49,145 bases of DNA from a bacterium. GTDB lineage: Bacteria; Methylomirabilota; Methylomirabilia; CAVQYV01. The notes beneath the pieces are model-generated. The model made no database searches. It had not been told where the DNA came from and saw only the letters and a program-made list of their open reading frames with translations. Shown piece after piece: positions 14,947 through 37,509 of this stretch. Position 1 is the first letter of the stretch; each line of letters begins with the position of its first letter. A program made the position numbers and the translations under genes. The stretch spans positions 1 to 49,145 of the forward strand of contig JAZDMQ010000021.1 in NCBI GenBank assembly GCA_043800755.1, read 5' to 3'.

Positions 14947-15369
14947 TTAAGGGAGTTGAAAGACCAGCTGGCCTTCCCCTACCACTTCCCCTCCAATCCT
15001 CGCCTCTCCTTGAAATTCGAAGAATCGACCAAACTGATGGAGCAACTTCATCCTAAGCCATAGCTCCTCACCCACCTCAGGTTCTCGGACGATCCGCATC
15101 CCCTTGATGGCCGCGTAGAAACCGGAGGGGGGCACCTTCTCCTGGGAGGCCGAGGCGGCCACTATCGAGGCGGCCTGCGCCATGGCCTCCGCAATGAGAG
15201 ACAGGGGAAAGAGCCCGGGAGGGCCAATCTGGCCCGCGAACTCCTCTCCCGCGCTCACCCGTTTCAGGGCAAGGATCTCCTTGCCCGGCTCCAACTCGAT
15301 GACCCTATCTACCAAGAGGAAGGGGTAACGATGGGGAAGAAGGCGGGGGAAGGAGCCGTCATGGGTCAT
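14947..15369 (-). CDS. fabZ: FabZ-like hot-dog dehydratase, atypical active site
   Basis: LPHRYPFLLVDRV and EAMAQ present; GHFP motif absent. Confidence 0.8.
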   Translation of the reverse strand: MTHDGSFPRLLPHRYPFLLVDRVIELEPGKEILALKRVSAGEEFAGQIGPPGLFPLSLIAEAMAQAASIVAASASQEKVPPSGFYAAIKGMRIVREPEVGEELWLRMKLLHQFGRFFEFQGEARIGGEVVGEGQLVFQLP

Positions 15370-15380
15370 GGGCTAAGGAC

Positions 15381-15644
15381 CTACTTGGCTCTGTGCTTCT
15401 CCACATAGCTGCAAAGGGCCTCCACCGAGGCGAAGGCCTCCTTTCCCACATCTTCATCCGGAATGGAGATGCCAAATTCCTGCTCCAATCCCACAACCAG
15501 CTCCAGGGCATCGATGGAATCCAGGCCCAGACCTTCCCCAAACAGGGGAGCCTGATCCTCGATGTCCGCCGGGGAGATCTCCAGTCTCAGCCGCCGAATA
15601 ATAAGGTCTTTGATCTGCTCCTTCAGGGTCCGATCGTCTCCCAT
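15381..15644 (-). CDS. Acyl carrier protein (aryl-polyene/flexirubin-like type)
   Basis: PLFGEGLGLDSIDALELVV with the phosphopantetheine Ser. Confidence 0.93.
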   Translation of the reverse strand: MGDDRTLKEQIKDLIIRRLRLEISPADIEDQAPLFGEGLGLDSIDALELVVGLEQEFGISIPDEDVGKEAFASVEALCSYVEKHRAK

Positions 15645-15740
15645 GCTCCCGAAACGCTCCCTCCTTTATCGCCGAACCCACCCCGCATCTTTTGGGATTT
15701 GCGAGGCAGGAAAAATGCCGCCCGATCCCCCCACTGCGGA

Positions 15741-16499
15741 TCACATTACCATTCCGCCATCCACCGAAAGAATCTGCCCGGTCAGGTAGTCGGCTGCCGG
15801 AGAGGCCAAAAAGACCGCCGCCGCCGCCACCTCCTCCGGAAGGCCAAACCGGCCCAGGGGAATCATCCCTAAGAATTCCTGCCGGATCTCCTCTGACAAT
15901 TGACCGGTCAACTCCGTCTCGATGATTCCAGGGGAGACGGCATTCACGGTGATCCCAAACCGGGACAACTCCCGGGCCAGGGACTTGGTGAAGCTCACCA
16001 CACCCCCCTTGGAGGCGGAGTAATTCACCTGTCCCGCCCGGCCAGAAAGGGCGCTGGGGGATGCGAGATTAATGATCTTGCCCGATCTCTGGCCGATCAT
16101 CATGCGGCAGGCCGCCTTGGAGCAGAGAAAGACCCCCTTGAGGTTCGTGGCCAGGACCTCGTCCCAATCCCCTTCGCCCATGAGCATCAGGAATTTGTCC
16201 CGGACCACCCCCGCGTTGTTCACCAGGATGTCCAGGCGACCGAAGGCTCCCTGCAAGGCTTGGAAGATCTTGCTCACCTGCTCGGCCGAGGAGACATCGC
16301 CCTCTAGGAGGATCCCCTCTGACCCGAGCGCCTTCACTTCGGCCAGGACCTGCTCTGCCGCCTCCCGGCTTTTTCGACAATTGACGGCCACCTTTGCGCC
16401 CTGCGAGGCCAGAGCGCGGCAGATCGCGGCGCCGATGCCCCTTGAACCGCCCGTGACCAAAGCGGCCTTGCCCTCAAACAGTCTCTCCAACTCTCCCAC
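15741..16499 (-). CDS. fabG: 3-oxoacyl-ACP reductase
   Basis: TGGSRGIG, NNAG, NYSASK, SVDGG. Confidence 0.93.
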   Translation of the reverse strand: MGELERLFEGKAALVTGGSRGIGAAICRALASQGAKVAVNCRKSREAAEQVLAEVKALGSEGILLEGDVSSAEQVSKIFQALQGAFGRLDILVNNAGVVRDKFLMLMGEGDWDEVLATNLKGVFLCSKAACRMMIGQRSGKIINLASPSALSGRAGQVNYSASKGGVVSFTKSLARELSRFGITVNAVSPGIIETELTGQLSEEIRQEFLGMIPLGRFGLPEEVAAAAVFLASPAADYLTGQILSVDGGMVM

Positions 16500-17421
16500 C
16501 CTCGAAGATCCGCTCCAGCAGGACCGGATCGTCCGTCGCCAGGACCTTCACCTTCCGGTCGATCCAACGGGTGAGGCGAGAGAGCATCTGCCCCGGTCCC
16601 ACCTCAATAAAGGTATCCACCCCTTCGCGCACCAGGCGTTCGATGCAATCCTTCCAGCGGATTTGGCTGTGCAGCTGCCGTGAAAGGAGGTCGCGGGCCT
16701 CCTCTCTGTCCCGCACATATTCCGCATCCACATAGGAGAGGACCGGGAGGCGGGGATCCTGGAGGTCAACCCCCCGCAAAAAAATCGCAAACCGCTGCGC
16801 GGAGTCCTGCATCAAAGGAGAATGATAGGCAGCCTCCACCTCGATCTCCTTCGCCTCCAGGGCTCCCCGGGCAAGGGCCAGGGAGCATGCCGCCTCCACT
16901 GCCTTCGCATCTCCTGAGATCACCACTTGCCGGGAGGCATTCAGGTTGGCCACCACTGCATGCCCATGTCCCTGCACCTCCTGGCAGATCTGGAAAACCT
17001 CGTCCTCCAGGAGCCCGATGACGGCGGCCATTTTGCCCGGGCGGGAAGCAGAGGCTTCCTCCATCAGGCGACCCGCCTCTTGAATCATGGCCAGCCCCGC
17101 AGAGAAATCGAAGACCTGCGCCGCCATCAGGGCGGAATAGAATCCCAGGCTGTAGCCGGTCACCGCCTGGGGGATGAGCCCCTGATCCTTCCAGAGCGAC
17201 CAGAAGATCGCATTGGCGACAAAGGTGGCCACCTGGGAAGGGGTATCCTGAAAAAGGAGGTCGCGGGGACCCTCCCGGATCAGTTGGCCCACATCAAATG
17301 GCACCAAGTCCTTGGCCTCATCGAGGAGGCGAGCAGTTTGAGGGGATCGCTTCAGAATCGCCCCTGCCATCCCCACATACTGTGAGCCCTGTCCGGGAAA
17401 AAGAAAGGCTTGCCTCGGCAA
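16474..17421 (-). CDS. fabD: FabD-like acyltransferase, atypical active site
   Basis: FLFPGQGSQ, GYSLG nucleophile, AYHSPLM, EVGPG. TTG start at 17421 with AGAGGA RBS. Confidence 0.85.
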   Translation of the reverse strand: MPRQAFLFPGQGSQYVGMAGAILKRSPQTARLLDEAKDLVPFDVGQLIREGPRDLLFQDTPSQVATFVANAIFWSLWKDQGLIPQAVTGYSLGFYSALMAAQVFDFSAGLAMIQEAGRLMEEASASRPGKMAAVIGLLEDEVFQICQEVQGHGHAVVANLNASRQVVISGDAKAVEAACSLALARGALEAKEIEVEAAYHSPLMQDSAQRFAIFLRGVDLQDPRLPVLSYVDAEYVRDREEARDLLSRQLHSQIRWKDCIERLVREGVDTFIEVGPGQMLSRLTRWIDRKVKVLATDDPVLLERIFEGGRVGETV

Positions 17422-17444
17422 TGAATTTCCTCTAAGGACAAATC

Positions 17445-17473
17445 TCAATAGCAGAAATGAGATGAAATTGCAA
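17445..17473 (-). promoter_or_regulatory. Candidate promoter for fabD-fabG-ACP-fabZ-yicC-remA-gmk-rpoZ
   Basis: TTGCAA-N17-TATTGA with TG extension in a locally AT-rich gap. Confidence 0.4.
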
Positions 17474-17641: not shown

Positions 17642-18742
17642 TTAACCCCTACACCGGCGGGCCTGGAGCAGATCCACAAAGGCCTCCAGTCGGGTGTTGA
17701 CCCCCGCCTCCCCCGTGTGTTCATCGAAGATGAGGGTCAGGATGGGAAAGGAGAGATCGCGGCTCACACGCGTGAGGATGCCCTGGGCCACGATCTCCGG
17801 CATGCAGGTAAAAGGCATCACATGGACCACCCCGTCGTATCCTTTGCGGGCAAAGTCGATCGCCCCTCCCACAGAGATGAGGCTCTCTCCTCCGGCCGAA
17901 TGATCCAGATAGCCTCGGGCCAGCCTCGCTGCCCTCCGGGTGCGGCTCCGCTTCCAGGGTTCGAAGTGAAAGCGCTCGTTGAGCCATTCGGAGAGCCATA
18001 TCCCCCTTTCCACATAGGCGCCCATCTCCCCCAATTTCCTCTCCACCTCAAAATTCGCATTCGGCTCTTCCACCATGAACAGCTCCCCCACGATGCCGAT
18101 CTTCACCACGGGCAGGCCGGGAGAAACCGCGGGAACGGAGGAAAGCAGCCGTCGAATCTGCTTCCTCGCCCGCTTTAGCTCTCGCAAATTAGAGGTCCCA
18201 TCGATCAGGGCCAGTGCCTGCTGGTAGGCCCTGGAGGAAGCGCCCTTCTCCTGCTCCCGGGGCCGGACCCGGTGGCATAGCCTCCGGGCCTCATCTGCCG
18301 CAGACAGCCTCTTCATCATGAAGTAAAAGATGCGAAAGCCCTCCCAGCGAGAGTTGATCCCGGTGATCTCGCGGATGGTGGCGATGGTGGAGGACATCCG
18401 GTCGGGGTCGTCGGTGGTGCCCATGGCGAATTGATACCCCAGGTCTTTGAGTATCTCCTCTTGCAGGCAGCTGTAGTAGCCGAAGCGGCACGGCCCGCAC
18501 CCCCCATAGGTGAGGATGGTATTGGCCCCCATCTCCAGGGCCTCTATCATATTCCCCATATTGAGCTTGAAGGGAAGGCAGGCGAACTCGGGCGACACCC
18601 GGCTCCCCAGCTTGAGAGAGCGGGCGTTGGGTCGCGGAGGGACGATGACCTCAACCCCTTTCCTCTCCAACACGCGGGCGTAGGCGAGGTCAATGCGCCC
18701 CATGTGGGGAACCGTAATCTTCAAGGAGGGAGGACGCGCCAT
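17642..18742 (-). CDS. 2-hydroxyacyl-CoA dehydratase (HGD-D)-like Fe-S protein, PlsR/Ger-domain-like
   Basis: PEFACLPFK, GGCGPCRFGYY, PFTCMPE, FDEHTGEAGVNTRLEAF. Confidence 0.8.
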   Translation of the reverse strand: MARPPSLKITVPHMGRIDLAYARVLERKGVEVIVPPRPNARSLKLGSRVSPEFACLPFKLNMGNMIEALEMGANTILTYGGCGPCRFGYYSCLQEEILKDLGYQFAMGTTDDPDRMSSTIATIREITGINSRWEGFRIFYFMMKRLSAADEARRLCHRVRPREQEKGASSRAYQQALALIDGTSNLRELKRARKQIRRLLSSVPAVSPGLPVVKIGIVGELFMVEEPNANFEVERKLGEMGAYVERGIWLSEWLNERFHFEPWKRSRTRRAARLARGYLDHSAGGESLISVGGAIDFARKGYDGVVHVMPFTCMPEIVAQGILTRVSRDLSFPILTLIFDEHTGEAGVNTRLEAFVDLLQARRCRG

Positions 18743-18771: not shown

Positions 18772-19776
18772 CTACTTGCCACCTGCCTCCCTGCTCTTTC
18801 CCTTGACCATGTCCAGGAAGGCCTCCAGCCGGGTTTGCAGCCCAGTTTGGGAGGTATGTTCATCGAAGATCAAGGAGAGATAAGGAAGGCGATAAGAGGC
18901 CCTGATCCGCCGATCGAGCAAGTCCTTGCTGAAGGAGTCGGGGCCACATCCGAAAGAGCTGAGGAAGATCATCCCCTGAATCCGGCCCAAGCTCAGGAAG
19001 TTGAGGGCCGCCCCCACAATGTGCCGGGTCAGACTCCAATAGATCTTCTTGCGCAGCAGCGCATTCTTCTCCTCTACCTGCTCCTGGCTCACCATCTCCG
19101 GGGTCAGCAGGTCGAACCCCCAGCCCCGAACCTGGTCCAGCAGATTGAAATTGAGGTACTCATCATAGAGGTTGTAAGGGTGGCCCACCACCGCAATGTG
19201 CGGGCGGCCGGTTTGAGCGGCCCTCCCCACCTCCTCCTCCTCCTGCCTCCTCCGCGAATCCACCGCCTCCATGGCCGACACCGGGGGCCATCCCTTCCGC
19301 AGAAGCCCTTCGAACCTCCCCTGGACTTCGAGCGCCTCATCGAGGGCGGCCTTGATCGTCCTGGCCTCGGCCCCCAGGGCTACCCCCGCCTCCCGGAGTC
19401 CTTCCCGGATCCCTTTTCCGGGGACCTTGGCATTGAAACAGGGGGCGAGCAGCGGAGGAAGGCTGTCCAAGCTCGCCTTGACAAAGTCGGGCAGGCCCAG
19501 AAATTTGGGGCACAAATAGGTATCCGAGGAGAAGCTGACCAGGCGCGGGAGGAACAGGAAATCCACCTTTCCCTTCAGGGCCTCCACATGCCCCAGATGC
19601 AACTTCATCGGCAGGCATAAGTCTCCTACCCCCAACCGCACGCCCCTCTCTAAGATCTCCCGCTGGGTCGGGGGAGACAGGACGACCTCCGCCCCCACAC
19701 CCTGGAAGAAGGATCTCCAGAGGGGGAAATAGTGATAGAAGAGAAGTGACCGGGTGATGCCGACGCGAGCGCCCAT
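18772..19776 (-). CDS. DUF2229 acyl-CoA dehydratase activase-related Fe-S protein
   Basis: VGITRSLLFY, CLPMK, CPKFLGLPD, GHPYN, FGCGPD, DEHTSQTGLQTRLEAF. Confidence 0.82.
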   Translation of the reverse strand: MGARVGITRSLLFYHYFPLWRSFFQGVGAEVVLSPPTQREILERGVRLGVGDLCLPMKLHLGHVEALKGKVDFLFLPRLVSFSSDTYLCPKFLGLPDFVKASLDSLPPLLAPCFNAKVPGKGIREGLREAGVALGAEARTIKAALDEALEVQGRFEGLLRKGWPPVSAMEAVDSRRRQEEEEVGRAAQTGRPHIAVVGHPYNLYDEYLNFNLLDQVRGWGFDLLTPEMVSQEQVEEKNALLRKKIYWSLTRHIVGAALNFLSLGRIQGMIFLSSFGCGPDSFSKDLLDRRIRASYRLPYLSLIFDEHTSQTGLQTRLEAFLDMVKGKSREAGGK

Positions 19777-19873: not shown

Positions 19874-20242
19874 ATGATCACTGGATTCAACACCGATGTA
19901 GGTTATAACAAAAAGGTCTACCATGTCCAGACCGAAGACGTGGCCGGGGACAATCCCTATGTCCTCACCCTGCTTTATCAGGGAGGGGCCATCATCGCCC
20001 GCGTCAAGACCAATTACGGCCCCCTCTCTCCGCAAAAGCTCAGCGAGCGCCAGATCCTCGAACTCATGGAAAGGCAGCACAAGAAGATGATCCTCGATCT
20101 GCGTTCGGGAAAGTTCGCGGCGGTAACCGGGGTCGAGCCGGAGCGAACCTTTGCGGCGGATATCCTCTCTTCCGAAAAGACCTTTGACCAGCTCATCCTG
20201 GACTACCTGGCGGGCCAAGATCCTTCCTCCGAGAAGAAATAG
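19874..20242 (+). CDS. Conserved hypothetical protein
   Basis: MITGFNTDV..YHVQTED..GGAII..LMERQHK looks like a conserved family; it has its own promoter and a downstream hairpin. Confidence 0.75.
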   Translation: MITGFNTDVGYNKKVYHVQTEDVAGDNPYVLTLLYQGGAIIARVKTNYGPLSPQKLSERQILELMERQHKKMILDLRSGKFAAVTGVEPERTFAADILSSEKTFDQLILDYLAGQDPSSEKK

Positions 20243-20254
20243 GAAAAGCAGAGA

Positions 20255-20302: not shown

Positions 20303-21823
20303 CTAACCCCTCGCCCTCAACACCTCCTGGGCGGCGATCCTTCCCGAAACGGTCACCGAAGCAATCCCCCCACCGGGAAAAGTCCAATGACCTGCCAGAT
20401 AGAGGTTCTCGATGGGGGTCCGGGGCGAGAGGCGCCGCGGGCCCACTTGATTCGGGCTCTGCTCCCACCCATAGGCGGCACCCTCGAAGTTCGCCGTGTA
20501 CCGTTCGAGGGTCAGGGGGGTGGAGATCTCCCGCACCAGGATGTGCCGGGAAAGGCCAGGGATCACTTTCTCCGTAACCCGGATCAGGTGGTTGGCCACC
20601 TCCTTCTTGATGCTGGTCCAATGCGCCCCCCAATGATAGGGAACCAGGAGGCTGAGGGTGAGGATATGCCTCCCGCGGGGCGCCAGCTGCGGATCGACTA
20701 GGGTGGGAATCACCATCCCGATAGAGATGGCTTCTTCGCTCAATTTGCCGGCCGTCTGGGCGGCAAAAATGGACTCGACCTCAAAGGTGGAAAAATAATC
20801 GATATGATGGCACAGGCCCATCTCCTCCAGGGGCAGATCGAGGCCCAAGAAGACCATGAAATAGGAGAGAGAGGGTGTCATCGCCTCGATCCTTCGCCGG
20901 AGGGACGACCCCACTCCGTCCTCTGGCAACAGACGAAAAGAGGTCTGACGGGCATCGATCGCCGAGACCACAGCCCCGGCCCCGATCTCTTGCCCATCTT
21001 CCAGCCTCACCCCGGTGGCCCGGTGGTCCTGAAGCAAGATCTCCCTCACCCGCCGCGACAAGAGGAGATGACCACCCCACCTCTGCAGGCCGCGGCAGAG
21101 GACATCAGCCAGACGCTGCACTCCTCCCTTCGCCTGAAAGGACCCGTCCTGCAAATAACCGAGGAGCATGCTCCCCATGCTGATCACGGAGGCCCTGGCC
21201 GGGGAGACCCCCATATACATGCATTGGCCAGAAATCAGCCCCTTGAGGCGCTCGTCGCGCAGATATTGGTCCAGCAACTGCCTCAGGGTGAGCAAACGGT
21301 ACCGGGTGAAGTAGGGATACCTGGTGGCAAAGCCCTTCAGGGAGTCGGAATCGAAGAGCAGCGGCATCGCCTTCAACTCGGAGAAAACCCCCTCCAGGGC
21401 GCCAAAGACCTCCGCGATCCCCTTCCCCTCCAGGGGAAAGGCCCGTCTCAGTCGGGCCAAGTAATCATCATATCGGGCGGGAAGGGAAAAGTGAAGGTCG
21501 GGAAAGAGGAGTTCCTTGATGGGGTCTAAGGGGATGAATTCGATCTCGGAGTCGAGATCCAGGCCTGCCAAAAGGTCACCAATCCAGCCGGATCGGTTGC
21601 AGCTGGAGAGGGAGTTAATCGCCACATCGAAGGTGAAGCCGTCTCGTCGGAAAGAAGTACAATATCCACCGGGGCGACGGTGCTGCTCCACCACCAAAAC
21701 CCGCATCCCCTCCTTCGCCAGTACCGCAGCGCACGAGAGACCGCCTATCCCGGCCCCGATGACCACGACATCATAGGAGGGGGCCAGCAGGGGGATCCCC
21801 CGTCCTCCCGGCCCTTCCTTCAT
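20303..21823 (-). CDS. Phytoene desaturase (CrtI/RetSat)-family FAD oxidoreductase
   Basis: VIGAGIGGL, PGGY, TPLTLERYT, GAAYGW, LYLAGHWTFPGGG. Confidence 0.88.
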   Translation of the reverse strand: MKEGPGGRGIPLLAPSYDVVVIGAGIGGLSCAAVLAKEGMRVLVVEQHRRPGGYCTSFRRDGFTFDVAINSLSSCNRSGWIGDLLAGLDLDSEIEFIPLDPIKELLFPDLHFSLPARYDDYLARLRRAFPLEGKGIAEVFGALEGVFSELKAMPLLFDSDSLKGFATRYPYFTRYRLLTLRQLLDQYLRDERLKGLISGQCMYMGVSPARASVISMGSMLLGYLQDGSFQAKGGVQRLADVLCRGLQRWGGHLLLSRRVREILLQDHRATGVRLEDGQEIGAGAVVSAIDARQTSFRLLPEDGVGSSLRRRIEAMTPSLSYFMVFLGLDLPLEEMGLCHHIDYFSTFEVESIFAAQTAGKLSEEAISIGMVIPTLVDPQLAPRGRHILTLSLLVPYHWGAHWTSIKKEVANHLIRVTEKVIPGLSRHILVREISTPLTLERYTANFEGAAYGWEQSPNQVGPRRLSPRTPIENLYLAGHWTFPGGGIASVTVSGRIAAQEVLRARG

Positions 21824-21846: not shown

Positions 21847-23100
21847 TCAGACTTGGACTCTTCGCAGCAGGATTGAGATGTGGCTCCCCCCATTGGAGGA
21901 ACCATTAATCAAGACATTCTCCAGATCGCCCGACCGACCGACATTGGGAATCCAGTCCAGATCGCAGGCTGGATCGGCCACCTGATAATGAATGGTGGGA
22001 GGTATCCATTGATGAGCCAAGGAGAGGGCAGAGGCCACTATCCTCAAGCCTCCACAGGAATTGAATTCCCCCAACATCGATTTGATGGCGCTGACCGGAA
22101 TCCCCGAGGACTCCTCACCCCGAATTCTCTTGATGGCCCGGGACTCCATCAGGTCCAAGCCCTGCGAGGAATTGGCGCAGGCGTTGATCGATTGCACCTC
22201 GCCTGCCTTGAGCCCTCCTGCCTTCAAGGCCAAACCCATCGCCCTGGCCAATCCTTCTCCTTCCTCCTCGTAATCGCTCACCCGGCACGGGCTCCCGCTC
22301 ATTCCCCACCCGGCCACCTCCGCATAGATGGAGGCCCCTCGGGAAAGGGCATGGGACAACTCCTCCAAGACCACGACCCCGGCCCCCTCTCCCAAGATGA
22401 TCCCATTGCGCCGCAGGTCGAAGGGGCAGCAGATCTCCTCTCCTCCCCGGCGATGCGGCGACAGCGCCCCCATCTTCCAATAGGAGAAGTGCAGGATCTG
22501 GCTTAGCTCATCCACGGCTCCCCCCAGGAGGAGGTCGGCCTTGCCGTGTCGGATCAGATCGCAGGCAAAGACAATGGCATTCTCCCCGGAGACCTCCTTG
22601 TGGGAGAGGGTGGCATTGGGGCCCTTGAATCCCATTTCGATGGCCACCTGGCTGGCCGGCGCATTGGGGACCGTGTTGGGAAAGAGCATGGGATTGGCCC
22701 CGGATGGTCCCATATCCAGCAGACCTCGAAAAAAGGCCTCGGTGCTGACCAGGCCGGAAAAGCCGCTTCCCAGGATGACGCCCACCTCGCCCGCTCCGTC
22801 AAAGGAGCGGGGAAAATGCGCGTCTTCGAAGGCCAGGCGGGCAGCCGCCACCGCCATCTGGCTCACCCGATCCAGCCTCCGCACCTTGGCGGCCGCCAGG
22901 AAGTCCTTGGGCTCAAAACCCCGCACCTCCCCGCCCAAACGGGAACCCGTCAAGGAGGGGTCGAAGTGGGAGATCTCCTGCAGCCCAGACCTCCCCTGTC
23001 GCAGGGACTCCCAGAAGGCCTCCTTTCCCAATCCCAAGGAGCTGATGATTCCCAGTCCGGTGATGACGACCCTTCGCTGATTGGGCTCCGAAGCGGCCAT
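21847..23100 (-). CDS. Catalytically inactive FabF paralog (chain-length-factor-like)
   Basis: KS fold (VVITGLG, GEGAGVVVLE); Cys replaced by Glu (SHKEVSG), NAHGT becomes NACAN, GHCLG becomes GEFNS. Confidence 0.88.
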   Translation of the reverse strand: MAASEPNQRRVVITGLGIISSLGLGKEAFWESLRQGRSGLQEISHFDPSLTGSRLGGEVRGFEPKDFLAAAKVRRLDRVSQMAVAAARLAFEDAHFPRSFDGAGEVGVILGSGFSGLVSTEAFFRGLLDMGPSGANPMLFPNTVPNAPASQVAIEMGFKGPNATLSHKEVSGENAIVFACDLIRHGKADLLLGGAVDELSQILHFSYWKMGALSPHRRGGEEICCPFDLRRNGIILGEGAGVVVLEELSHALSRGASIYAEVAGWGMSGSPCRVSDYEEEGEGLARAMGLALKAGGLKAGEVQSINACANSSQGLDLMESRAIKRIRGEESSGIPVSAIKSMLGEFNSCGGLRIVASALSLAHQWIPPTIHYQVADPACDLDWIPNVGRSGDLENVLINGSSNGGSHISILLRRVQV

Positions 23101-29174: not shown

Positions 29175-30626
29175 TTAGCGAGGAGGAGTGGCATCGGCCT
29201 CCACCCCCAGCTCCCTCAGCCGCTCCTTGACCTGGGGAAGGAAGACGCTGGGGGTCTCGGTCAGCCAGCCCTTCAAGACATCCTCCTTGGAGATGCGGTT
29301 CGACCTCCTCTCCCGGGCGCTCTTCTCCGCCCCGGCAGAGGTCTTCTTCTGGGCAATCTTCTTGAGTAGGGCGGGGACAGCCTCCAGCAGATCCTGGTGC
29401 AAACCCCTGGCCTCCCCTTCCCAGACCAGCCCCTGATCCTCCCGATATTCCTGCTCCTTGGCAAAGACGGCCCCGCTCACTAGGTCCTCCAGGAAGGCAT
29501 CGTACTTCGCCACCTGGGCCTTCAATTCCTCGCTCTTCACACTGATCGCCCGATCGGCAATCTCATCGCAGTAGCGGCACTCCTCACAGAAGGTGCGGGA
29601 GCAGTCCACCTTCTTGAAGAATTCGAGGAAGTCCGCCGGGATCTTGCGGGAATCGATCTCGATGAGCTCGCTCACCGTCATGTCGCAGCAGTCGGCGAAG
29701 TCCATCAGTTTGTCCGTATTCACGAACTCCTCCCGCATCAGGTATTTCAAGTTGACCGGGAGAAATGCCCCTCGCTTGGGCAGATTCAAGAGATCGATCA
29801 GGTTTCCCTCATATCTTCGTTCCGTATACGCCTTCAGATAGGAGAGGAGCACCTCGGTGGTCTTGTAACGGTCAATGATCTTCAGCCGATCAATCCCCAC
29901 CTCCTCATAGTAACCCACATCCTCAGGCCGGATCCACCGGATTTTTATCAATTCCCTGGGGTCGGCCATCTTCCTCCGGGTGCAGGAGAAATAGCAGCTA
30001 TCGATGATGAATCCCTCGCTCACATGCCCGGCCTGGGAGCCGTGGGTCATGGTATTGGTGTGATTCAGGTGCTGATGGCACTCATAGAGACAACCCGGAT
30101 TGGCGATAAGGATCAGCTCCCCCTGGAAGGCTTTCCGGATCGCCTCCAGCATCCGGAAATCCCGGGCCGTATCCTCCTTCAGGATGATCGAATCCGCCCC
30201 CCAGTCCTCCCAGAATTTTGCGGTACGGGGATTGTTGACCCGCGCGTGGCTGGAGATCTTCACCTCCAGGCGGGGAAACTGCTTCTTGATGATGCACAAC
30301 AGGAAGGGGATGGAGACGGTGACGGAATCCACGCCCAGGCTCTCCACCCAGGCGATATGCTCTACGATCCTTTTGTTTCCCTCCCTCTGATATTCCATGT
30401 TGTCCAGGCAGGTGGCATTCAAGAGGAAGTTGAACCGCAGCCCCCGACGATGGACTTCCTTCACATATTGCTCCACATGCTCCGGCGTAGCCTCCACCGC
30501 CACAAAGGAACCCCTCCCTCCCGCGATGGGGCTATTGGGCATCCCCCCAAAGAGCTCATCCGCGGGGGTTCCCGCCAAGCCGTCCAACAGCGCGGGATCC
30601 CAGTTGCAGGCCATCTCAAATTTCAT
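29175..30626 (-). CDS. U32 family Fe-S protein with C-terminal PCP_red-like helical domain
   Basis: FNFLLNATC, ANPGCLYEC, SCYFSC, WIRPED, LKIIDR; tail WEGEA..VPALLKKIA..AE..ISKEDV. Confidence 0.82.
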   Translation of the reverse strand: MKFEMACNWDPALLDGLAGTPADELFGGMPNSPIAGGRGSFVAVEATPEHVEQYVKEVHRRGLRFNFLLNATCLDNMEYQREGNKRIVEHIAWVESLGVDSVTVSIPFLLCIIKKQFPRLEVKISSHARVNNPRTAKFWEDWGADSIILKEDTARDFRMLEAIRKAFQGELILIANPGCLYECHQHLNHTNTMTHGSQAGHVSEGFIIDSCYFSCTRRKMADPRELIKIRWIRPEDVGYYEEVGIDRLKIIDRYKTTEVLLSYLKAYTERRYEGNLIDLLNLPKRGAFLPVNLKYLMREEFVNTDKLMDFADCCDMTVSELIEIDSRKIPADFLEFFKKVDCSRTFCEECRYCDEIADRAISVKSEELKAQVAKYDAFLEDLVSGAVFAKEQEYREDQGLVWEGEARGLHQDLLEAVPALLKKIAQKKTSAGAEKSARERRSNRISKEDVLKGWLTETPSVFLPQVKERLRELGVEADATPPR

Positions 30627-30691: not shown

Positions 30692-32221
30692 TTACAGTGC
30701 CCCTTCCACCCATTCGGCGGCCCGGCGACCCGTCATGAAGGCCGCAGGAAGCCCGCCGGGATTAAAGGTCCAGTGGCCGGCCAAAAAAAGGTTCTTGATC
30801 GGGGTCTTCTGGGGGAGCTTGTGCTGCTCCTCCGCGTCCATGCTCCAGCCGGAGGAGGCGCCCATGCTGTTTCCCGTATATCGATAGAAGGTCAGGGGCG
30901 AGGCCGCCTCTTTCACCAGGATATGGCTCTCCAGGCCCGGGATCGCCTCGCCGGCCAAGCGGACCAAGGAATCGGCCACCCCCTCCTTCCAATCTTCATA
31001 TCCCCTCCGATGCTCTCCCTCCACCCTCCCAAACCACCTCTCGCAATCCGGCGCGAAGGCGCCGATGACGACGGCATGGCCGCCTGCAGGGGCGGCTCCC
31101 TCATCGCTTAAGGAGGGGATGCCGATGCCGATATATTCGGGAAGGACGGCCCTCCCCTCCCTCTCCGGAAAATACCAGAGGACGGGGAAGGGGCAGCTAT
31201 CTCCCGCCTTCAAGTCCAGATCCACCCCCAGATACACATAGAAGAAGGACTCCGACAGCCTCCACTTCCTCAAGCTCTCCAGATACCTCCGGGGCAGCCT
31301 CGCTCCCCCTCGGGATGAGGGATCCCCCGCAGGGCTATCCCCGCCCAGCATCTGCAGAAAGGTCTGCCGGGCATCGGCATTGGAGATCACCGTCCGGGCT
31401 CCAATTACGGTATTATCCGCCAGCCGGACCCCCGTGGCCCGGCCCTTCTGGGTGAGAATCTCCGCCACCCTGCGGTCATAGAGGATCTCCCCTTTGCCCC
31501 TCCGGCAATTCTCAGCAAGGACATCCGCGATCCTCTGGATCCCCCCCCGGGGATAATAGCAATCTGCGCTGGAGATGATATTCCAGAACCAGGAGAGCAT
31601 CACCATGGAGACCCGGGGGAAGATGGCAGCGATCTTCAAGATTCGCCGCAGATCGGGATCCCGGGTGAGGCGATCCACCACCTCTGCCCCGCGACGGCGG
31701 TGGTAGCGGGCGATGTGGGGAAAGCGGAGGGGAAAGGTGGCATGGAAGCCGAGTCTGGCCAGGCCCTCCTTCGCGTCGGGGTCGGCCGTGAAGAGGTGGA
31801 ACATCTCCTGCGTGATCTTGCCCTGAAGGGCAAAGAATCGATCCAGGCCCTCCCTCTCCGCGGGGAAGCGTCCCTGCAGATAGGCCAGGGTCTGGGATCT
31901 GCCCTGGGGGATCGCATACCGATTCCCGGGGGTAGCCACCGCCAGGGGGGGATCGATCTGGACGAAATCGATCTCCCCCTCCAGGCCCAGATCTCTCAAA
32001 ATCTGATGGATGATCCCCCCCTCGCCACACTGGGCGATCCAGTGGACGCCCGCGTCGAACCGAAATCCCCCCCGGGCAAAGGAGGTGGCGCATCCCCCCG
32101 GACGGGGGTTCTGCTCGATGATCAGGGTGGAGTAGCCCGCCTGAGCCAGGTAATTCCCTGCGGTGAGGCCGCCGATCCCGGAGCCGATAATGATCACATC
32201 GTAGGAGTTATCCATGGTCAC
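30692..32221 (-). CDS. Second phytoene desaturase-family FAD oxidoreductase
   Basis: IIGSGIGGL, FDAGVHW, SPLTFYRYT, LFLAGHWTFNPGG. Confidence 0.88.
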   Translation of the reverse strand: MTMDNSYDVIIIGSGIGGLTAGNYLAQAGYSTLIIEQNPRPGGCATSFARGGFRFDAGVHWIAQCGEGGIIHQILRDLGLEGEIDFVQIDPPLAVATPGNRYAIPQGRSQTLAYLQGRFPAEREGLDRFFALQGKITQEMFHLFTADPDAKEGLARLGFHATFPLRFPHIARYHRRRGAEVVDRLTRDPDLRRILKIAAIFPRVSMVMLSWFWNIISSADCYYPRGGIQRIADVLAENCRRGKGEILYDRRVAEILTQKGRATGVRLADNTVIGARTVISNADARQTFLQMLGGDSPAGDPSSRGGARLPRRYLESLRKWRLSESFFYVYLGVDLDLKAGDSCPFPVLWYFPEREGRAVLPEYIGIGIPSLSDEGAAPAGGHAVVIGAFAPDCERWFGRVEGEHRRGYEDWKEGVADSLVRLAGEAIPGLESHILVKEAASPLTFYRYTGNSMGASSGWSMDAEEQHKLPQKTPIKNLFLAGHWTFNPGGLPAAFMTGRRAAEWVEGAL

Positions 32222-33260
32222 CTGATCCCGCCTCGCCCCTCACCGCCGTCCCGTTTTCCCAGTAGGACACATAATTGAACCACTGATCGGGATACCTTCG
32301 CAGATATCCCTCCAGGACAGATGTCACCCGCGTCAGATTCTCCCGCATATCCTCCTCGCGATTCCCCGTCTCCTGCATGGGCACGGGATCCTCCACCAGG
32401 AAGCGATAACCCTTCTTCTCCTGGAGGATGAAGATGGGGATCAGCGGGGCCTTGCTGGCCATGGCCAGGATGACCGGGCCCGGGGGGAAGGAGACCGGGG
32501 AGCCGAAGAATTCCACCTTCACCCCCCTCCTCCCATAATTTCTGTCTCCCTGGAGGCAAACGATCTCGTTGCGCCGAAGGGCCTTCATCATAGAGACCAG
32601 GGAGAAAGGAGTCCCGCTGATGGAGAGCTGCCCCACCCCCTTCCGCTCGCGGTAACGCCGGCGGGATTTCTCCACCCCCCAGATGCGATCCGGAAAATAG
32701 ACGATGTTCACCGGAAGGTGAAGGGCCTTGAGGATCATCCCCCCCAATTCCCAGTTTCCCAGGTGGGCGGTGACGAGGATGGCCCCCTGGCCTTCTTGCA
32801 GGGCTTGGGTGATCACCTGCTCATTGGACACGCCGGAGATCAGGCCCCGCAACGCTCCCTCGTCCATGCGGGAGGTGCAGATCAGATCGATCAGATATTG
32901 CGCATACCGGCGGAAGGTCTGCTTGGCCAATCGGGCCGCCTCTTCCCGGGAGGTCCCCTCCCCCAGTATATGGTGGATATTGGAGATCACGGCCTCGCGG
33001 TCCAATCGGGCGAAGAGGAAATAGAGGTCGGCAAAGGGGATTCGAACCTTCGAGATGGCCTCACGGGAGAAGAGGCGGAGGGTGAGCCGCAGGGCATGAA
33101 ACAGGAAGGCATTCAGGGGATAATGATACCAGGCCCTCTTGAACGGCGTCCTGGACTCCACCTCCCAGACAATTGAGGATCTCCCCTTCGGCATTGCCTC
33201 CGAGACCGCAAGCAGCTCAGCCTTCTCCAATCTTCCTCCTCTCTCCTCCTGCGGAGCCAA
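32208..33260 (-). CDS. Lysophospholipid / lipid A (LpxL-type) acyltransferase
   Basis: VTAHLGNWE, LQGDR, FFG, YPDQWF. Start uncertain. Confidence 0.88.
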   Translation of the reverse strand: MAPQEERGGRLEKAELLAVSEAMPKGRSSIVWEVESRTPFKRAWYHYPLNAFLFHALRLTLRLFSREAISKVRIPFADLYFLFARLDREAVISNIHHILGEGTSREEAARLAKQTFRRYAQYLIDLICTSRMDEGALRGLISGVSNEQVITQALQEGQGAILVTAHLGNWELGGMILKALHLPVNIVYFPDRIWGVEKSRRRYRERKGVGQLSISGTPFSLVSMMKALRRNEIVCLQGDRNYGRRGVKVEFFGSPVSFPPGPVILAMASKAPLIPIFILQEKKGYRFLVEDPVPMQETGNREEDMRENLTRVTSVLEGYLRRYPDQWFNYVSYWENGTAVRGEAGSGDHG

Positions 33261-34638
33261 CGCCCCGGCCCCTGCCCCTCAGGTTGCGCATATAGCCCCA
33301 GATGGGCCCCAGCTTCCCTCTCCGGCAGAACTGCTGCAGTCTCACCGAGTAATTGATATGGCAGCCCGGGACGATCCAACTGCGGCACCTGCCCGCGTGG
33401 GCCACCACCAGATCAATCACTTCGTCCCCCAGGGCGGGGGAGAGGTAGAACCTGGGAGGATGGGCAATCTCCGCGGGGTGAAAGAGTCCCTCTCTCACCA
33501 GGGCCTGGGCCAACGCCGTATGGGGATAAACCCGCACCCCGATCATGGCGATCACCGCGGTGGGATCCACCTCCTCCATCAGTTCAAAGGTCTCCTGGAG
33601 GGTGGCGCGATCCTCTCCCGGGCCTCCCAAAATCAGGCTGTGGCAGAATTGAATCCCCGACCGATGGCAGGAGGAGGAGGCCTCCCGGATCTGCTGGGGC
33701 CCGAAGTTCTTCTTCAGGGCGGAGAGGACCAGAGGGGAGCCGGAGTCGGTCCCGAACTCGAGGTTCTTGCAGCCGGCCCGGGCCATCAGCTCCACCAGGG
33801 GAGGGCTCAGGTAGCCGGGATGGGCATAGCAGGTCCAGCTGATTCGGAGGCCCCGAGCAATGATCTGCTCGCAGATCGCCTGGGCATGCTGGGGGGGGTG
33901 ATTGAAGACATCATCCACGAAGAAGAAGTGGCCGATGCCATAATCCCTCTGCAGCCCTTCCATCTCCGCCACCACCTTCTCCGGATCTCGCAGGCGCACC
34001 CTCCCACCATTGATCAGGGGGTAGGTGCAATAGATGCACTGGAAGGCACAGCCCCGCTTCGACTGAATATTGCAGACCCCGCCTTCGCGGAGATAGGCGG
34101 CCACATCCAACAGGTCCCGGGCGGGCAGGGGCAAGGCATCGATATTGAGCAAAGGGGAAGGAGGTGTGATCTGGAATTGGCCTCCCTTCCTGCAGATGAG
34201 CCCCGGCACCCCATCTGTCGCCCCCTGCGCCAGGAACCGGACCATGGACCCCTCTCCTTCCCCCACGATGCCCATCTCCAAATCGAGCAGCCCGAGGAGC
34301 TCCTCGGGCATGATGGTGAAGCCCGATCCTCCCACCAGGATTGGGGCGGGTGAGAAGCGACGCAGCAAATCCACCACCCTCCGCAGAGGCTCGATGTAGG
34401 AGACGGTGAAGGGGTAGGCGGTGTTGTCCACATTGCGGATGGAGAGGCCGATGATCTCGGGGGGGAAGGCGCGGAGGCCTTCCTGGATGGAGGCCTCAAG
34501 GTCAAGGGAGAAGCAGAGGTCCAAGAGGGCAACCTCATGGCCCGCCTCCCTCAAGGCCGCCGCCAGGTAAGAAAGCCCAATGGGGGATACCGGATCGGGA
34601 AGGAACTCCTGATTGGGGGAAACCAGCATTACCCGCAT
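33217..34638 (-). CDS. Lipid-biosynthesis-type B12-binding radical SAM protein
   Basis: PDPVSPIGLSYL, LSIRNVDN, RGCAFQCIYCTYP, EFGTDS, GVRVYPHT. Confidence 0.9.
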   Translation of the reverse strand: MRVMLVSPNQEFLPDPVSPIGLSYLAAALREAGHEVALLDLCFSLDLEASIQEGLRAFPPEIIGLSIRNVDNTAYPFTVSYIEPLRRVVDLLRRFSPAPILVGGSGFTIMPEELLGLLDLEMGIVGEGEGSMVRFLAQGATDGVPGLICRKGGQFQITPPSPLLNIDALPLPARDLLDVAAYLREGGVCNIQSKRGCAFQCIYCTYPLINGGRVRLRDPEKVVAEMEGLQRDYGIGHFFFVDDVFNHPPQHAQAICEQIIARGLRISWTCYAHPGYLSPPLVELMARAGCKNLEFGTDSGSPLVLSALKKNFGPQQIREASSSCHRSGIQFCHSLILGGPGEDRATLQETFELMEEVDPTAVIAMIGVRVYPHTALAQALVREGLFHPAEIAHPPRFYLSPALGDEVIDLVVAHAGRCRSWIVPGCHINYSVRLQQFCRRGKLGPIWGYMRNLRGRGRGVGSAGGERRKIGEG

Positions 34639-34647
34639 AAGTTACTG

Positions 34648-35871
34648 TCAGATCCGGGGTTGCAGGGAAAGCTCGCTGATCCGCGGGACATACCCCGCTT
34701 TCCGATGGGAATAAAATTCTCTCCAGGCCTGCCGATATCCGTCCCGGAGTTGGTCCACGGACATGGATCTGGGCTTGAAAACCACATGCATGGTATTGTA
34801 CTTGCTCCAATCCCGCTCAAAGATCCTCCCCTCCTCCTCCAATCTCTCGAAAAGGCGGGTCTTGGGATAGGGGGTCAAGATCAGGAATTCCACCTCATCC
34901 AACCCGGCCTCCTGGGCAAACCTCACCGTCCGCTCGAAGACCCCCGGATCATCGTGATCGAAGCCAAAGGCAAAGGAACCGATCACCTCGATCCCCGCAT
35001 CGTGGATCTTCTTGAGGTGGTCAAAGCACCGCTCCCTCTGGTGGAGCCCCTTGTTTCTCTCACTGAGGTCCGCGGAAATCCAGGGGCCCATGTCCACATA
35101 CATCAGCCAGCAGCCGCTTTTAGCCATCAGCCCTAATAGATCGGAATCGTCAGCGATGCGCAGGGAGCCCAAGCAGACCCATTTCTTGTTGAGGGGAATG
35201 AGGGCCTGCAGGAGCTTCTCGGTATAGGACTTCTTGATCAGGAGGTTATCGTCGACGAAGAAGAGGGAGGAGCTCAACTCCGCGATCTCGGAGAGGACCT
35301 CGGGGAGCGGACGGACGCGATAGGAACGGCCGAAGGTAGCCGGCACGGAGCAAAACTCACAATTCACCGGACACCCTCGCGCCGCCTGGATCAAATCCAC
35401 CGGCAGGTATCCCTTGCCCCGGAGGAGGTCTCGTCGGGGGAAGGCGAGGTGGGACAGCTCCACCTTCTCCCCACAGCGGTAGACGGGCTCCAGGCCCCCG
35501 TCCCGAAGGTCTTTCAGGAGTTGAGGAAAGACGCCTTCCGCCTCTCCCACCACCACCGAATCCACATGGGCTGCGGCCTCCTGAGGGAGCACCGAGGGAT
35601 GGGGTCCTCCTAAGATCACCTTCACCTTCCGCGTCCGGAAGGCATCTGCGATGGCGTAGGCGCGGGAGGCTTGAAAGGTCATGGCCGAGATCGCCACCAG
35701 GTCGGCCTCCTCCTCAAAATCGATCGGCTCCAATCTCTCATCGGTGAATTTCACCTCCCACTCCGGGGGAAAGAGGCTGGCCACGGTAATCAAGCCCAGG
35801 GAGGCAATCCGGCTGCGATAACGAAGCGGGAAGTCGCCTCCATCCGGATAAATAAGTCGTACTCTCATCAT
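34648..35871 (-). CDS. B12-binding radical SAM protein, divergent
   Basis: ILGGPHPS, GEAEG, RGCPVNCEFC, TPYPKT; the GxES motif is replaced. Confidence 0.9.
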   Translation of the reverse strand: MMRVRLIYPDGGDFPLRYRSRIASLGLITVASLFPPEWEVKFTDERLEPIDFEEEADLVAISAMTFQASRAYAIADAFRTRKVKVILGGPHPSVLPQEAAAHVDSVVVGEAEGVFPQLLKDLRDGGLEPVYRCGEKVELSHLAFPRRDLLRGKGYLPVDLIQAARGCPVNCEFCSVPATFGRSYRVRPLPEVLSEIAELSSSLFFVDDNLLIKKSYTEKLLQALIPLNKKWVCLGSLRIADDSDLLGLMAKSGCWLMYVDMGPWISADLSERNKGLHQRERCFDHLKKIHDAGIEVIGSFAFGFDHDDPGVFERTVRFAQEAGLDEVEFLILTPYPKTRLFERLEEEGRIFERDWSKYNTMHVVFKPRSMSVDQLRDGYRQAWREFYSHRKAGYVPRISELSLQPRI

Positions 35872-36111
35872 CTAAGGCGCCTCTGTGAAGAAAAACAGGG
35901 TGTCCGCGCTTTCTCGTAAAAAAGGTTATCTCCTGCAGCGAAGACACCCGTCCAGGGGAGGTTGATCTCCTCCCCAAGCAATATACAAGCTAAGAAGCGT
36001 CTTGGCCCATCGTCTCCTCCATCGAGCTGCCGGATTTACCATGGATGAGGCGAAGATAAACCTTTTCACTTCAGGGAGCGAATCACGGCCGCCCGGGAAG
36101 GCAGCGCTTGA

Positions 36112-37509
36112 TCACCCCATGGTGGCCGAGATCTTCTCCGCCTGATCCCTGGCCTTGATCTTCTCCCTTTCCTCCTCCCAGATCGGGTCCGAGATCCGGG
36201 CATAGGCGGAAGAGAACTGGTCGATCTCGCTGGCCAGGTCGCCGAACATCACCTCCGCGCCCTGGTGGGTCGGCCGGGCCTGGTGAAGCTGGATGGCCGA
36301 TCGTGAGACCTCGGGCTTGTCCACCAACATGCAGGGGCGGTAAAGGTTCTCATTATACGGGATCTGTCCCCGGATATAGCGAAAGAAGGGGGAACTCAGG
36401 GCCTCCTTGAGGGATTTGTCCCGGATATTGTCCACCGCATAGTGGCAGAAGACACAGGGCTCGATATCTCCCTGAGAATTGATATGGAAGTATTTCCGGC
36501 CCCCGGCGATGCAGCCTCCCACCACCGCCCCATCCCCCATGAAATCGCCCAACAGGATGGGTTTGGCCTCCCGAAAGTATTTCACCCTCTCCCGCAGCTG
36601 GTTGCGCTGCTCCGGGGTGGGCATGAGATCCATCTTCGGTTCTCGCCCAATGGGCATGTAGATGAAATACCAGCCGAGGCTCACTCCCTTTTCGATGTAA
36701 TGATCCAGGAAACGATCGGAGAGGATCAGGTCGGCATTCTGCCGGGTTAGGGTGGCGGAAAAGGCAAAGAGGATCCCGGCCTCCCGCAGAAGGTCCATGG
36801 CCCGTTCCACCTTGGCATAGTGCCCCGCGCCGCGCCGGGCATCGGTCTCCTCCTCGAATCCCTCGATGCTGATGCAAGGAAGGACATTCCCCAGGCCTGT
36901 TAGGCGTTCCACGGTCTTCTCGTTCAAGAGGCCTCCATGGGTGTAGATCATGAAGGCCACATCATTGTGGGCGGCAAAGAGATCGAACAGGTTCGGGTGC
37001 AGGAACGGCTCTCCCCCTGAGACCACCACGAAATAGATCCCCATCTCCTTGCCTTCCTTGAGGACCCGATCCATTAGCGGATAGGGCAGGTCTTGCTCCC
37101 GGGAATACTCGCCCGAATAACAGCCATAGCAGTGGAGATTGCAGCGCATGGTGGGGGAGAGGACGAAAAGGCCCGGGGGATAAAAGCCACCGGGGGACTC
37201 AGAGAACTCCTTCCTCTTGTTCGTGCCCACCAGCAGCTGATTGATAATGAAACACTCCACCAGCTTGCGGCGATGGAGCGGGTTTGTCTCCTGCATGATC
37301 CTTTTGGCCACCGTCAGGGCTGGATGCTGGCTCTCAAAGAGGGACCGGATGCGCCGTATCTGCCGCCGGTAATAGTCCTTCTGGGCCACCTTTTCCGCCA
37401 AATAGGTCATGCGGATCAGATTCTGATCGGAGCTATTGCCCAGAGCCCCGACCAGGCCGCTGATCACCTGGCTCAGCGTGTAATTACGGATCTGCTGGAG
37501 GTAGTTCAT
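36112..37509 (-). CDS. Radical SAM protein with SPASM/twitch C-terminal domain
   Basis: CNLHCYGC, SGGEP, SIEG, GCIAGG..EPCVFC..RPC. ATG 37509 with GGGGAGG RBS. Confidence 0.92.
   Translation of the reverse strand: MNYLQQIRNYTLSQVISGLVGALGNSSDQNLIRMTYLAEKVAQKDYYRRQIRRIRSLFESQHPALTVAKRIMQETNPLHRRKLVECFIINQLLVGTNKRKEFSESPGGFYPPGLFVLSPTMRCNLHCYGCYSGEYSREQDLPYPLMDRVLKEGKEMGIYFVVVSGGEPFLHPNLFDLFAAHNDVAFMIYTHGGLLNEKTVERLTGLGNVLPCISIEGFEEETDARRGAGHYAKVERAMDLLREAGILFAFSATLTRQNADLILSDRFLDHYIEKGVSLGWYFIYMPIGREPKMDLMPTPEQRNQLRERVKYFREAKPILLGDFMGDGAVVGGCIAGGRKYFHINSQGDIEPCVFCHYAVDNIRDKSLKEALSSPFFRYIRGQIPYNENLYRPCMLVDKPEVSRSAIQLHQARPTHQGAEVMFGDLASEIDQFSSAYARISDPIWEEEREKIKARDQAEKISATMG

Follow-up and report, generated by a model that had tools for sequence, protein, structure and literature searches.

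What does a gene array that couples a fatty-acid-synthase-like core to six radical SAM enzymes make, and how does it relate to known lipid gene clusters? We address this for a Methylomirabilota bacterium in which such an array occupies much of a window of 49145 bases, the entire contig C9 of a 2.43-Mb genome that comprises 166 contigs and is rated 100% complete. The array runs almost continuously along the minus strand from 37575 down to 14947 and holds about twenty genes. We consider it likely that it is a variant, with two additions, of the 'ladderane-type' (TIGR04072-associated) family of fatty acid synthase (FAS)/polyketide synthase (PKS)-like lipid clusters, and that it works as proposed below. 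The cluster probably builds an unusual fatty-acid-like lipid and tailors it radically without oxygen, and the product is probably an envelope lipid and very probably not a ladderane.

A dedicated second fatty-acid-like system

Transcription starts at a SPASM-type radical SAM gene and continues through rSAM5 and rSAM4 (the B12-binding radical SAM enzymes are numbered rSAM1 to rSAM5), an LpxL-type acyltransferase, the flavoprotein CrtI_b, a U32 protein, rSAM3, rSAM2 and a deacetylase. The second part comprises rSAM1, a FabF-type ketosynthase (KS), a dead KS, the flavoprotein CrtI_a, DUF2229 subunits a and b, FabD, FabG, an acyl carrier protein (ACP) and a FabZ-like protein; the genes next downstream are those for YicC, guanylate kinase and RpoZ. 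Families were called with Pfam and NCBIfam scans of the window proteins, applying the model cut-offs (Table 1). All of the minus-strand gene families listed in the original prediction are present, and its counts of five B12-binding and one SPASM radical SAM enzymes and two CrtI-family flavoproteins stand; the array does not end at 37509, as first given, but at 37575, the ATG of the SPASM gene. The housekeeping FASII genes sit elsewhere: contig C108 has a fabD–fabG–acpP–fabF operon, and C155 carries FabZ and an LpxL-like gene. The array of the window is therefore a second, dedicated system of FAS/PKS-like type. Enoyl reductase, thioesterase and phosphopantetheinyl transferase are all absent from the Pfam matches of the array proteins. 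From two RNA libraries of one study, contigs match 27 of 30 and 25 of 30 bins of 17601–37600 at ≥95%, which is compatible with transcription of the array, although DNA carry-over is possible.

The active sites define the core more closely. Aligned with the two housekeeping FabF proteins of the same genome, one KS keeps the Cys-His-His triad; its partner has Glu, Arg or Cys, and Cys at these columns, and likewise in G001, a genome from a sister genus of the same family. The expected pairing of an active with an inactive KS is thus borne out by a change at all three catalytic positions. The FabZ-like protein had been called atypical, and the case for this is stronger than supposed: the catalytic His is replaced by Gln here and by Ser in G001, the Glu is retained, and the genome's own FabZ carries the His.

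The array has an ACP apart from housekeeping FASII, a FabF with an inactive FabF paralogue, and a CrtI homologue in two copies. The proposed kinship with candidate ladderane clusters is upheld by the shared ACP, KS and dead KS, CrtI homologue and a TIGR04072-like B12-radical SAM enzyme that scores just below the model cut-off (excerpts of PMC2649909 and PMC10139942), and the array holds O2-sensitive enzyme types throughout. With the clusters of Kuenenia (kuste3603–3608 and kuste3335–3352), Desulfotalea, Geobacter and Pelobacter, as excerpted descriptions present them, the window further shares a FabZ homologue, phytoene-desaturase homologues, several B12-radical SAM enzymes and a polysaccharide-deacetylase-like gene. 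It differs in having no phenylacetyl-CoA ligase, glycosyltransferase, SAM methyltransferase or 'new membrane protein'. Its variant traits are a U32/BchE-like block, a DUF2229/HGD-D pair, a SPASM radical SAM enzyme and the His-less FabZ-fold protein.

Novelty of kind had been overstated. Candidate clusters in Kuenenia, Desulfotalea, Geobacter and Pelobacter were described in 2009 (PMC2649909, in part), an NCBIfam model exists, and antiSMASH 'ladderane' clusters were reported from one basin in nine non-anammox or mixed phyla, including Desulfobacterota, Fibrobacterota, Myxococcota, Verrucomicrobiota, Latescibacterota and Omnitrophota (excerpt of PMC9902471). The kind of cluster is therefore already catalogued, and uncharacterised. 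Excerpts of later papers describe the ladderane pathway as still unsolved in 2023 and 2026 (PMC10139942, PMC13459092, PMC13598231) and a 'ladderane synthase' as merely proposed as of September 2026 (PMC13598231), and in the excerpted text of PMC13459092 ladderanes and the product of Jaw5 stand as the sole named cases of radical SAM chemistry on acyl lipids. We found no characterised pathway with the full gene combination in the literature searched, in agreement with the original prediction.

The co-occurrence of these genes, on which the earlier reading had been made to depend, is conserved. In G001, 16 of the 20 genes recur with order and orientation unchanged at 56–87% amino acid (aa) identity, and the array likewise ends at YicC, and the gene order of metagenome contigs L141–L144 is that of the window. 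One contiguous block, rSAM2–rSAM3–U32–CrtI_b (26264–32221), is missing from the G001 locus, and L144, whose DUF2229b is 80% identical, has rSAM3 and rSAM2 in place; the block therefore appears to be variably present among close relatives. Its G+C content is 0.601, compared with 0.607 for the rest of the cluster. Matches are rare among 251 species genomes of the phylum (all counts include the window's own genome): the rSAM4 type occurs in 25 (E ≤ 1e-60), U32 in 6 (E ≤ 1e-20) and DUF2229b in 2 (E ≤ 1e-30).

Table 1. Genes of the array and the matches on which their assignments rest; percentages in G001 are amino acid identities.
Feature	Coordinates	Strand	Matches and remarks
Radical SAM/SPASM, first array gene	36112..37575	-	PF04055 7.4e-19, PF13186 9.6e-08; NCBIfam models all below cut-off; ~135-aa N-terminal extension; 87% in G001
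B12-binding rSAM5, paralogue of rSAM1/2	34648..35871	-	PF02310, PF04055, DUF4070; 45% to rSAM1, 41% to rSAM2; 77% in G001
B12-binding rSAM4, TIGR04072-like ('lipid biosynthesis B12-binding/radical SAM protein')	33217..34638	-	TIGR04072 6.9e-103; 75% in G001
LpxL/PatA-type (Lip_A_acyltrans) acyltransferase	32208..33260	-	PF03279 8.3e-38; top NCBIfam PIM acyltransferase, 122 bits, under cut-off 209
CrtI-family flavoprotein b (carotenoid-isomerase-like), accessory block	30692..32221	-	PF01593, PF13450; TIGR02730 158 bits, below cut-off
U32-family Fe-S protein, accessory block	29175..30626	-	PF01136 1.4e-11, PF11084 1.2e-06; Cys-rich region and DUF2621-like tail
BchE-like B12-binding rSAM3, accessory block, U32 partner	27634..29127	-	TIGR02026 235.6 bits, cut-off 481
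B12-binding rSAM2, accessory block	26264..27637	-	PF02310, PF04055; 47% to rSAM1
NodB-type polysaccharide deacetylase, 5'-truncated	25696..26244	-	PF01522, model positions 28-123 only
B12-binding rSAM1	24413..25699	-	PF04055, PF02310, DUF4070; CxxxCxxC at 212-219 of long ORF (open reading frame); 72% in G001
Active ketosynthase (FabF type)	23100..24362	-	TIGR03150 496.1 bits, cut-off 493.75
Inactive ketosynthase partner (chain-length-factor-like)	21847..23100	-	PF00109/PF02801
CrtI-family flavoprotein a	20303..21823	-	TIGR02734 crtI_fam 206.9 bits, cut-off 238; 67% in G001
Conserved 122-aa gene, opposite strand	19874..20242	+	codon-position test; 73-79% aa in relatives
DUF2229/HGD-D subunit a	18772..19776	-	PF09989 7e-47 (160 bits)
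DUF2229/HGD-D subunit b	17642..18742	-	weak PF09989/PF06050
Malonyl-CoA:ACP transacylase FabD, corrected TTG start	16474..17421	-	TIGR00128 256.7 bits, cut-off 260.9
3-Oxoacyl-ACP reductase FabG	15741..16499	-	TIGR01830 302.2 bits, cut-off 297.75
Dedicated acyl carrier protein	15381..15644	-	PF00550 3.1e-13; LGLDS motif; 43% to C108 housekeeping ACP
FabZ-fold protein without catalytic His	14947..15369	-	FabZ models 96 and 92 bits, cut-offs 113 and 155

Two additions: the U32 pair and the DUF2229 pair

The U32 gene product has the U32 fold: its model (pLDDT 88.4) best matches the U32 protein Mk0906 (PDB 5d88; TM(target) 0.74), and its profile matches 5d88 at 3.6e-16. Eight Cys residues (73, 179, 183, 215, 342, 347, 350 and 353) are invariant in 26 sequences and may include the four-Cys motif for a 4Fe-4S cluster. 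A single-sequence scan of genome contigs gave no relatives, and an alignment-based scan succeeded; of the 78 loci fetched by homologue alignment, 67 have room downstream and 18 were clustered by gene family. An rSAM3 homologue lies directly downstream on the same strand, as in the window, in 37 of the 67, with the U32–rSAM3 loci coming from metagenome-assembled genomes (MAGs) labelled Thermodesulfobacteriota, Syntrophaceae, Syntrophorhabdus, Omnitrophota and Elusimicrobia. Among the 18 clustered loci, 11 carry a small gene family, of which the one protein scanned was assigned to the type II chorismate mutases (PF01817 1.2e-24), and 5 carry a CrtI-like gene. The nearest U32 homologues (77–79% identity) sit on contigs of 'Nitrospirae' MAGs with 42% GC, against 60% in the window, together with homologues of rSAM2 (59–60%) and CrtI_b (61%); these are the identities of rSAM2 and CrtI_b in L060/L061.

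The product of chorismate mutase is prephenate. Prephenate is the oxygen donor of the U32 enzymes UbiU and UbiV, in a family of twelve subfamilies, most of them uncharacterised (excerpt of PMC10990095). Taken together with the fold and profile matches and the chorismate mutase neighbours, this donor role suggests that the U32 protein may be a prephenate-dependent hydroxylase, and the oxygenation attributed to the block would then probably be O2-independent and prephenate-dependent. With UbiU/UbiV, TrhP and RlhA the window protein shares the barrel fold, possibly a conserved Cys set, and relatives beside chorismate mutase, but it is a single gene rather than a U/V pair, adds a CX4CX2CX2C region and a DUF2621-like tail, and has a B12-radical SAM enzyme as its conserved partner. 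That partner, rSAM3, matches BchE (the anaerobic Mg-protoporphyrin monomethyl ester cyclase, which oxidises and cyclises and does not methylate) over nearly its full length, but below the model cut-off and with no bacteriochlorophyll genes nearby. A complex prediction for U32 with rSAM3 scored 0.00 and carries no weight either way. Sequences resembling the U32 tail were also seen elsewhere: at C78:5817-6767, in a 996-aa frame, a DUF2621-like stretch (30–32% to the tail) is joined to a SPASM-type radical SAM region, and in L060 and L066 a small ORF resembling the tail lies 3' of the U32 gene.

The DUF2229 subunits a and b are 27–29% identical to consecutive parts of a 1420-aa BcrAD_BadFG-fused protein on contig C159 of the same genome (29% for subunit a, to residues encoded at C159:8879-9811). 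The stretch C159:6788-12021 holds this protein, in which two BcrAD_BadFG domains precede DUF2229/HGD-D-like parts, and after it a 323-aa BcrAD_BadFG gene. This is the B-B-D-H domain order of Ger, the ester-to-ether reductase (PMC13159169, in part). The window pair shares with Ger and the plasmalogen synthase PlsA/PlsR the DUF2229 (PF09989) and HGD-D (PF06050) domains and three invariant Cys per subunit (55, 85 and 313 in subunit b, across 26 sequences), but is split (334 + 366 aa), has no BcrAD_BadFG domains and is embedded in a FAS/radical SAM cluster. Subunit b also has weak profile matches to 2-hydroxyacyl-CoA dehydratase chains (7yyl_C, 0.0029; 3o3m_B, 0.029). The pair, earlier described as a split ether-lipid-like reductase, does match the Ger/PlsA architecture in its catalytic (non-ATPase) half (excerpt of PMC13159169) and, judged by its domains, appears to be a catalytic half without the ATPase. 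Because the C159 genes show the Ger/PlsA architecture, the organism may make ether lipids via the C159 protein independently of the window cluster.

Split DUF2229 proteins are common, with 4094 matches at E ≤ 1e-10 among 7999 candidates scored. Most of the 80 metagenome loci that we fetched show the pair alone; 23 of them (17 of 74 at <60% identity) carry other cluster families, the distant ones in at least three arrangements. L154, L156 and L160 have, in this order, a SPASM radical SAM gene, a BcrAD_BadFG ATPase, DUF2229 genes in the order b-a-a-b, and LpxL-type, SRPBCC, rSAM1-like, MMPL and CrtI genes; L150 and L151 have the pair with CrtI and KS/dead KS, and L149 has it with LpxL, rSAM1-like and FabD genes. 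SPASM homologues of 51–55% identity stand beside BcrAD_BadFG and DUF2229 genes in L146 and L154–L160. The recurrence of the same families in independent arrangements points to a functional link between the pair and the cluster families. What is new here is this recurrent linkage of a pair resembling the Ger/PlsA catalytic halves with SPASM, LpxL, B12-radical SAM and CrtI genes, together with the presence, inside a ladderane-type cluster, of a U32 and BchE-like B12-radical SAM gene pair that is kept in several phyla and frequently neighbours chorismate mutase. No prior description of the U32, B12-radical SAM and chorismate mutase association or of the DUF2229-cluster association was found in the literature searched.

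A proposed pathway and its competitors

In the pathway that we propose, FabD would load malonate onto the dedicated ACP, the heterodimer of active and dead KS would elongate the chain and FabG would reduce the keto group. An enoyl reductase is missing from the cluster and the FabZ-fold protein is without the His, so housekeeping enzymes, or some other means, would have to supply dehydration and any saturation; with neither an enoyl reductase nor a competent dehydratase encoded, the chain is probably left partly unsaturated or hydroxylated. CrtI_a would act on C–C/C=C bonds of the chain, and the core radical enzymes (rSAM1, rSAM4, rSAM5 and the SPASM enzyme) could functionalise unactivated carbons by methylation and/or by forming a C–C ring or cross-link. 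The DUF2229/HGD-D heterodimer would perform ketyl-radical chemistry at the acyl carbonyl, as in the ester-to-ether conversion of Ger/PlsA, primed in trans by the ATPase on C159, the only contig of the genome with PF01869 genes above cut-off. The LpxL-type enzyme would then shift the acyl chain from the ACP to a (glyco)lipid hydroxyl, and the accessory block (CrtI_b, U32, rSAM3 and rSAM2) might add an O2-independent oxygenation coupled to a further radical step. A more specific version, in which U32 and rSAM3 form a prephenate-fed, O2-free oxygenation and ring-closure pair acting on lipids instead of quinones or RNA and yield, with the Ger-like enzyme, a new lipid class, seems to us rather doubtful.

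Several observations weigh against the proposal. No member of the family has a known product, substrate or activity. To our knowledge, the substrates known for U32 enzymes include no acyl chains; they are aromatic rings and nucleobases. Of the characterised subfamilies TrhP, RlhA, UbiU and UbiV, the U32 protein scores on TrhP alone, with 31.5 bits, under the cut-off of 534, and five other genomes of the phylum (G027, G032, G075, G204 and G250) have U32 homologues with no cluster homologue in the fetched flanks. The best NCBIfam model for rSAM3 is BchE (TIGR02026, residues 3–454 of 497), at 235.6 bits and a cut-off of 481.35; rSAM4 reaches 344.6 bits on TIGR04072, by far its best family (BzaD is next, at 226.7), and the cut-off is 360. 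The window contains no PF01869 gene, so the ATPase for the DUF2229 pair is missing from the cluster. The deacetylase is truncated, and the acceptor chemistry may therefore differ from that of the relatives. RNA-library contigs are absent over ~29642–32274, and such libraries may contain DNA. Finally, the FabZ-fold protein keeps the Glu but not the His of the amxFabZ-like pair, and the anammox enzyme retains its His48 (excerpt of PMC10139942).

The proposal also has to be weighed against other products. The window has a KS with a chain-length-factor (CLF)-like partner, ACP, ketoreductase, hot-dog protein and LpxL-type enzyme and no enoyl reductase, as do the type II PKS systems for aryl polyenes and flexirubins, so a pigment of this kind, a polyene built by KS/CLF, ketoreductase and dehydratase on the ACP and anchored by LpxL to an outer-membrane lipid, is a natural competitor. 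The flexirubin FlxB model gives FabG 254 bits, but this lies below both the cut-off of 340 and its generic FabG score, and it is in the related L154-type clusters, not in the window, that an MMPL exporter and an SRPBCC protein are found. Aryl polyene and flexirubin gene sets include an ammonia lyase, an adenylating enzyme, a thioesterase, a glycosyltransferase and LolA/MMPL export functions; a Pfam scan of the array turned up neither a starter enzyme (adenylating or ammonia-lyase) nor a gene for a thioesterase, a glycosyltransferase, a LolA-like or an MMPL protein. We know of no aryl polyene cluster with six radical SAM enzymes, and regard the pigment as unlikely. For the Desulfotalea cluster, Rattray et al. 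proposed that it makes polyunsaturated fatty acids or hydrocarbons anaerobically; such a route here would give the two CrtI-type desaturase homologues a role. It draws on Desulfotalea psychrophila, which has a syntenic cluster, contains C31:8 and C31:9 hydrocarbons and lacks ladderanes (PMC2649909, as excerpted). That link is a correlation only; moreover, a Pfam scan of the window gave no head-to-head (Ole-type) condensing enzyme, and the six radical SAM enzymes, the U32 protein and the DUF2229 pair would be left unexplained, which makes this route quite improbable.

The same ladderane-free Desulfotalea bears on true ladderane (concatenated cyclobutane) lipids as the product, which we judge extremely improbable even though the ACP, KS and dead KS, CrtI, FabZ homologue and TIGR04072-like B12-radical SAM enzyme are common to the anammox candidates. 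The role of the anammox clusters in ladderane synthesis is itself unproven (PMC10139942), ladderanes are reported from anammox Planctomycetota only (PMC9902471), as far as the excerpts of these papers go, and the His that amxFabZ keeps is lost here. Or the array may not be one pathway at all: the radical SAM, U32 and CrtI enzymes could serve other substrates than the FAS-like genes, tailoring hopanoids, carotenoids or quinones, for example. The array is cut into three or more units by the plus-strand gene and promoter-like elements, many genomes carry the U32–rSAM3 pair on fetched stretches that lack KS and ACP genes, and the best weak NCBIfam matches of several radical SAM enzymes are BchE, HpnJ and HpnR. 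However, the gene order is kept across genera, the KS, CrtI, LpxL, B12-radical SAM and DUF2229 genes regroup in independent arrangements, and Pfam revealed no array gene for the synthesis of terpenes or quinones, so that a division of substrates appears very unlikely.

Gene models, surroundings and wider meaning

Some gene models in the array had to be revised. FabD, which had been called atypical, has GYSLG in place of GHSLG; its long N terminus, in a 416-aa ORF, is an ORF-calling artefact, and the protein has ~315 aa. From the stop of DUF2229b to the FabD core the sequence is unconserved, with indels, in five relatives, and the 100-residue extension is therefore non-coding. A conserved TTGCAA..TGCTA element and a purine-rich site precede a conserved TTG at 17421 that gives MPRQAFLFPGQGSQ; because the promoter-like element and the TTG are conserved and the upstream stretch has diverged, we place the start there. 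TTGCAA-type promoter-like elements are kept amid diverged non-coding DNA at 17430–17500, before fabD, and at 19790–19870, before the plus-strand gene; a TTGCAA-N17-TACTAT motif 5' of the latter is under the threshold of the promoter scan. The start of rSAM1 is most likely Met45 (25699), overlapping the deacetylase stop as ATGA. The deacetylase is without the N-terminal membrane segment and the TFDDG motif, both present in G001 and L144, and L140, a 99%-identical contig, has the same truncation. It is not an insertion scar of the four-gene block, since in L144 rSAM3 and rSAM2 are followed by a full-length deacetylase.

The plus-strand gene is real. Against four relatives, the region 19835–20218 has 72–83 substitutions at one phase and 24–48 at the other two, and the substitution-rich phase is codon position 3 of the plus-strand ORF (position 1 of the minus ORF). 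The substitution phase rules out the minus-strand ORFs at 19835–20218 and 20193–20633 as genes, the apparent 52–56% conservation of the former being an antisense shadow. The 122-aa product, 73–79% identical in G001, L143, L144 and L164, has no Pfam match, and its model (pLDDT 74.4), with a four-strand sheet plus helices at moderate confidence, matches no PDB fold at E ≤ 0.001. Its profile finds 2537 representatives at E ≤ 0.001; the N-terminal 85 residues belong to a large family without a name (975 representatives at E ≤ 1e-10) that often starts longer proteins, ten of which, when scanned, gave only one C-terminal TonB_C and one sub-threshold match.

Contigs of both RNA-library runs stop at 29642 with the same loose end, and DNA runs cover 29642–32274 at lower depth; strains possibly differ in the 5' part of U32 and in CrtI_b. 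Directly upstream (38501–43855, minus strand) lies an operon for an HlyD/DevB-type membrane fusion protein, two ABC ATPases and two ABC-2 permeases, separated from the cluster by a plus-strand LpoB-like lipoprotein gene (37746–38375). The operon is syntenic in G001 (74–81%) and is a possible exporter of the cluster lipid. A 975-aa protein with PD40/beta-propeller repeats and an Omp85 barrel domain, encoded at 9132–12059 (minus strand), is unmatched in the syntenic G001 stretch. Elsewhere in the genome, at least five further B12-radical SAM paralogues (42–53% to rSAM1; the C143 copy 40% to rSAM4) and another SPASM paralogue (38%) lie on contigs C129, C29 (two), C114, C143 and C25, none of which has a KS or ACP homologue.

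Few lipid gene clusters without an assigned product are as widespread as those of the ladderane type, and radical SAM chemistry on non-isoprenoid acyl lipids is almost unexplored. The core with the block (window and L144) and without it (G001) amounts to a natural experiment, in which a comparison of lipids could assign chemistry to both parts. The linkage of the DUF2229 pair to such clusters suggests Ger/PlsA-type chemistry beyond plasmalogens, and from the association of U32, B12-radical SAM and chorismate mutase genes in Desulfobacterota, Omnitrophota and Elusimicrobia it seems that prephenate-dependent hydroxylation extends to a new class of substrates. If the U32 and rSAM3 reading is true, the product would be a hydroxylated or keto-cyclised, radical-branched and possibly ether-bound anaerobic lipid, a potential biomarker of anoxic sediments.

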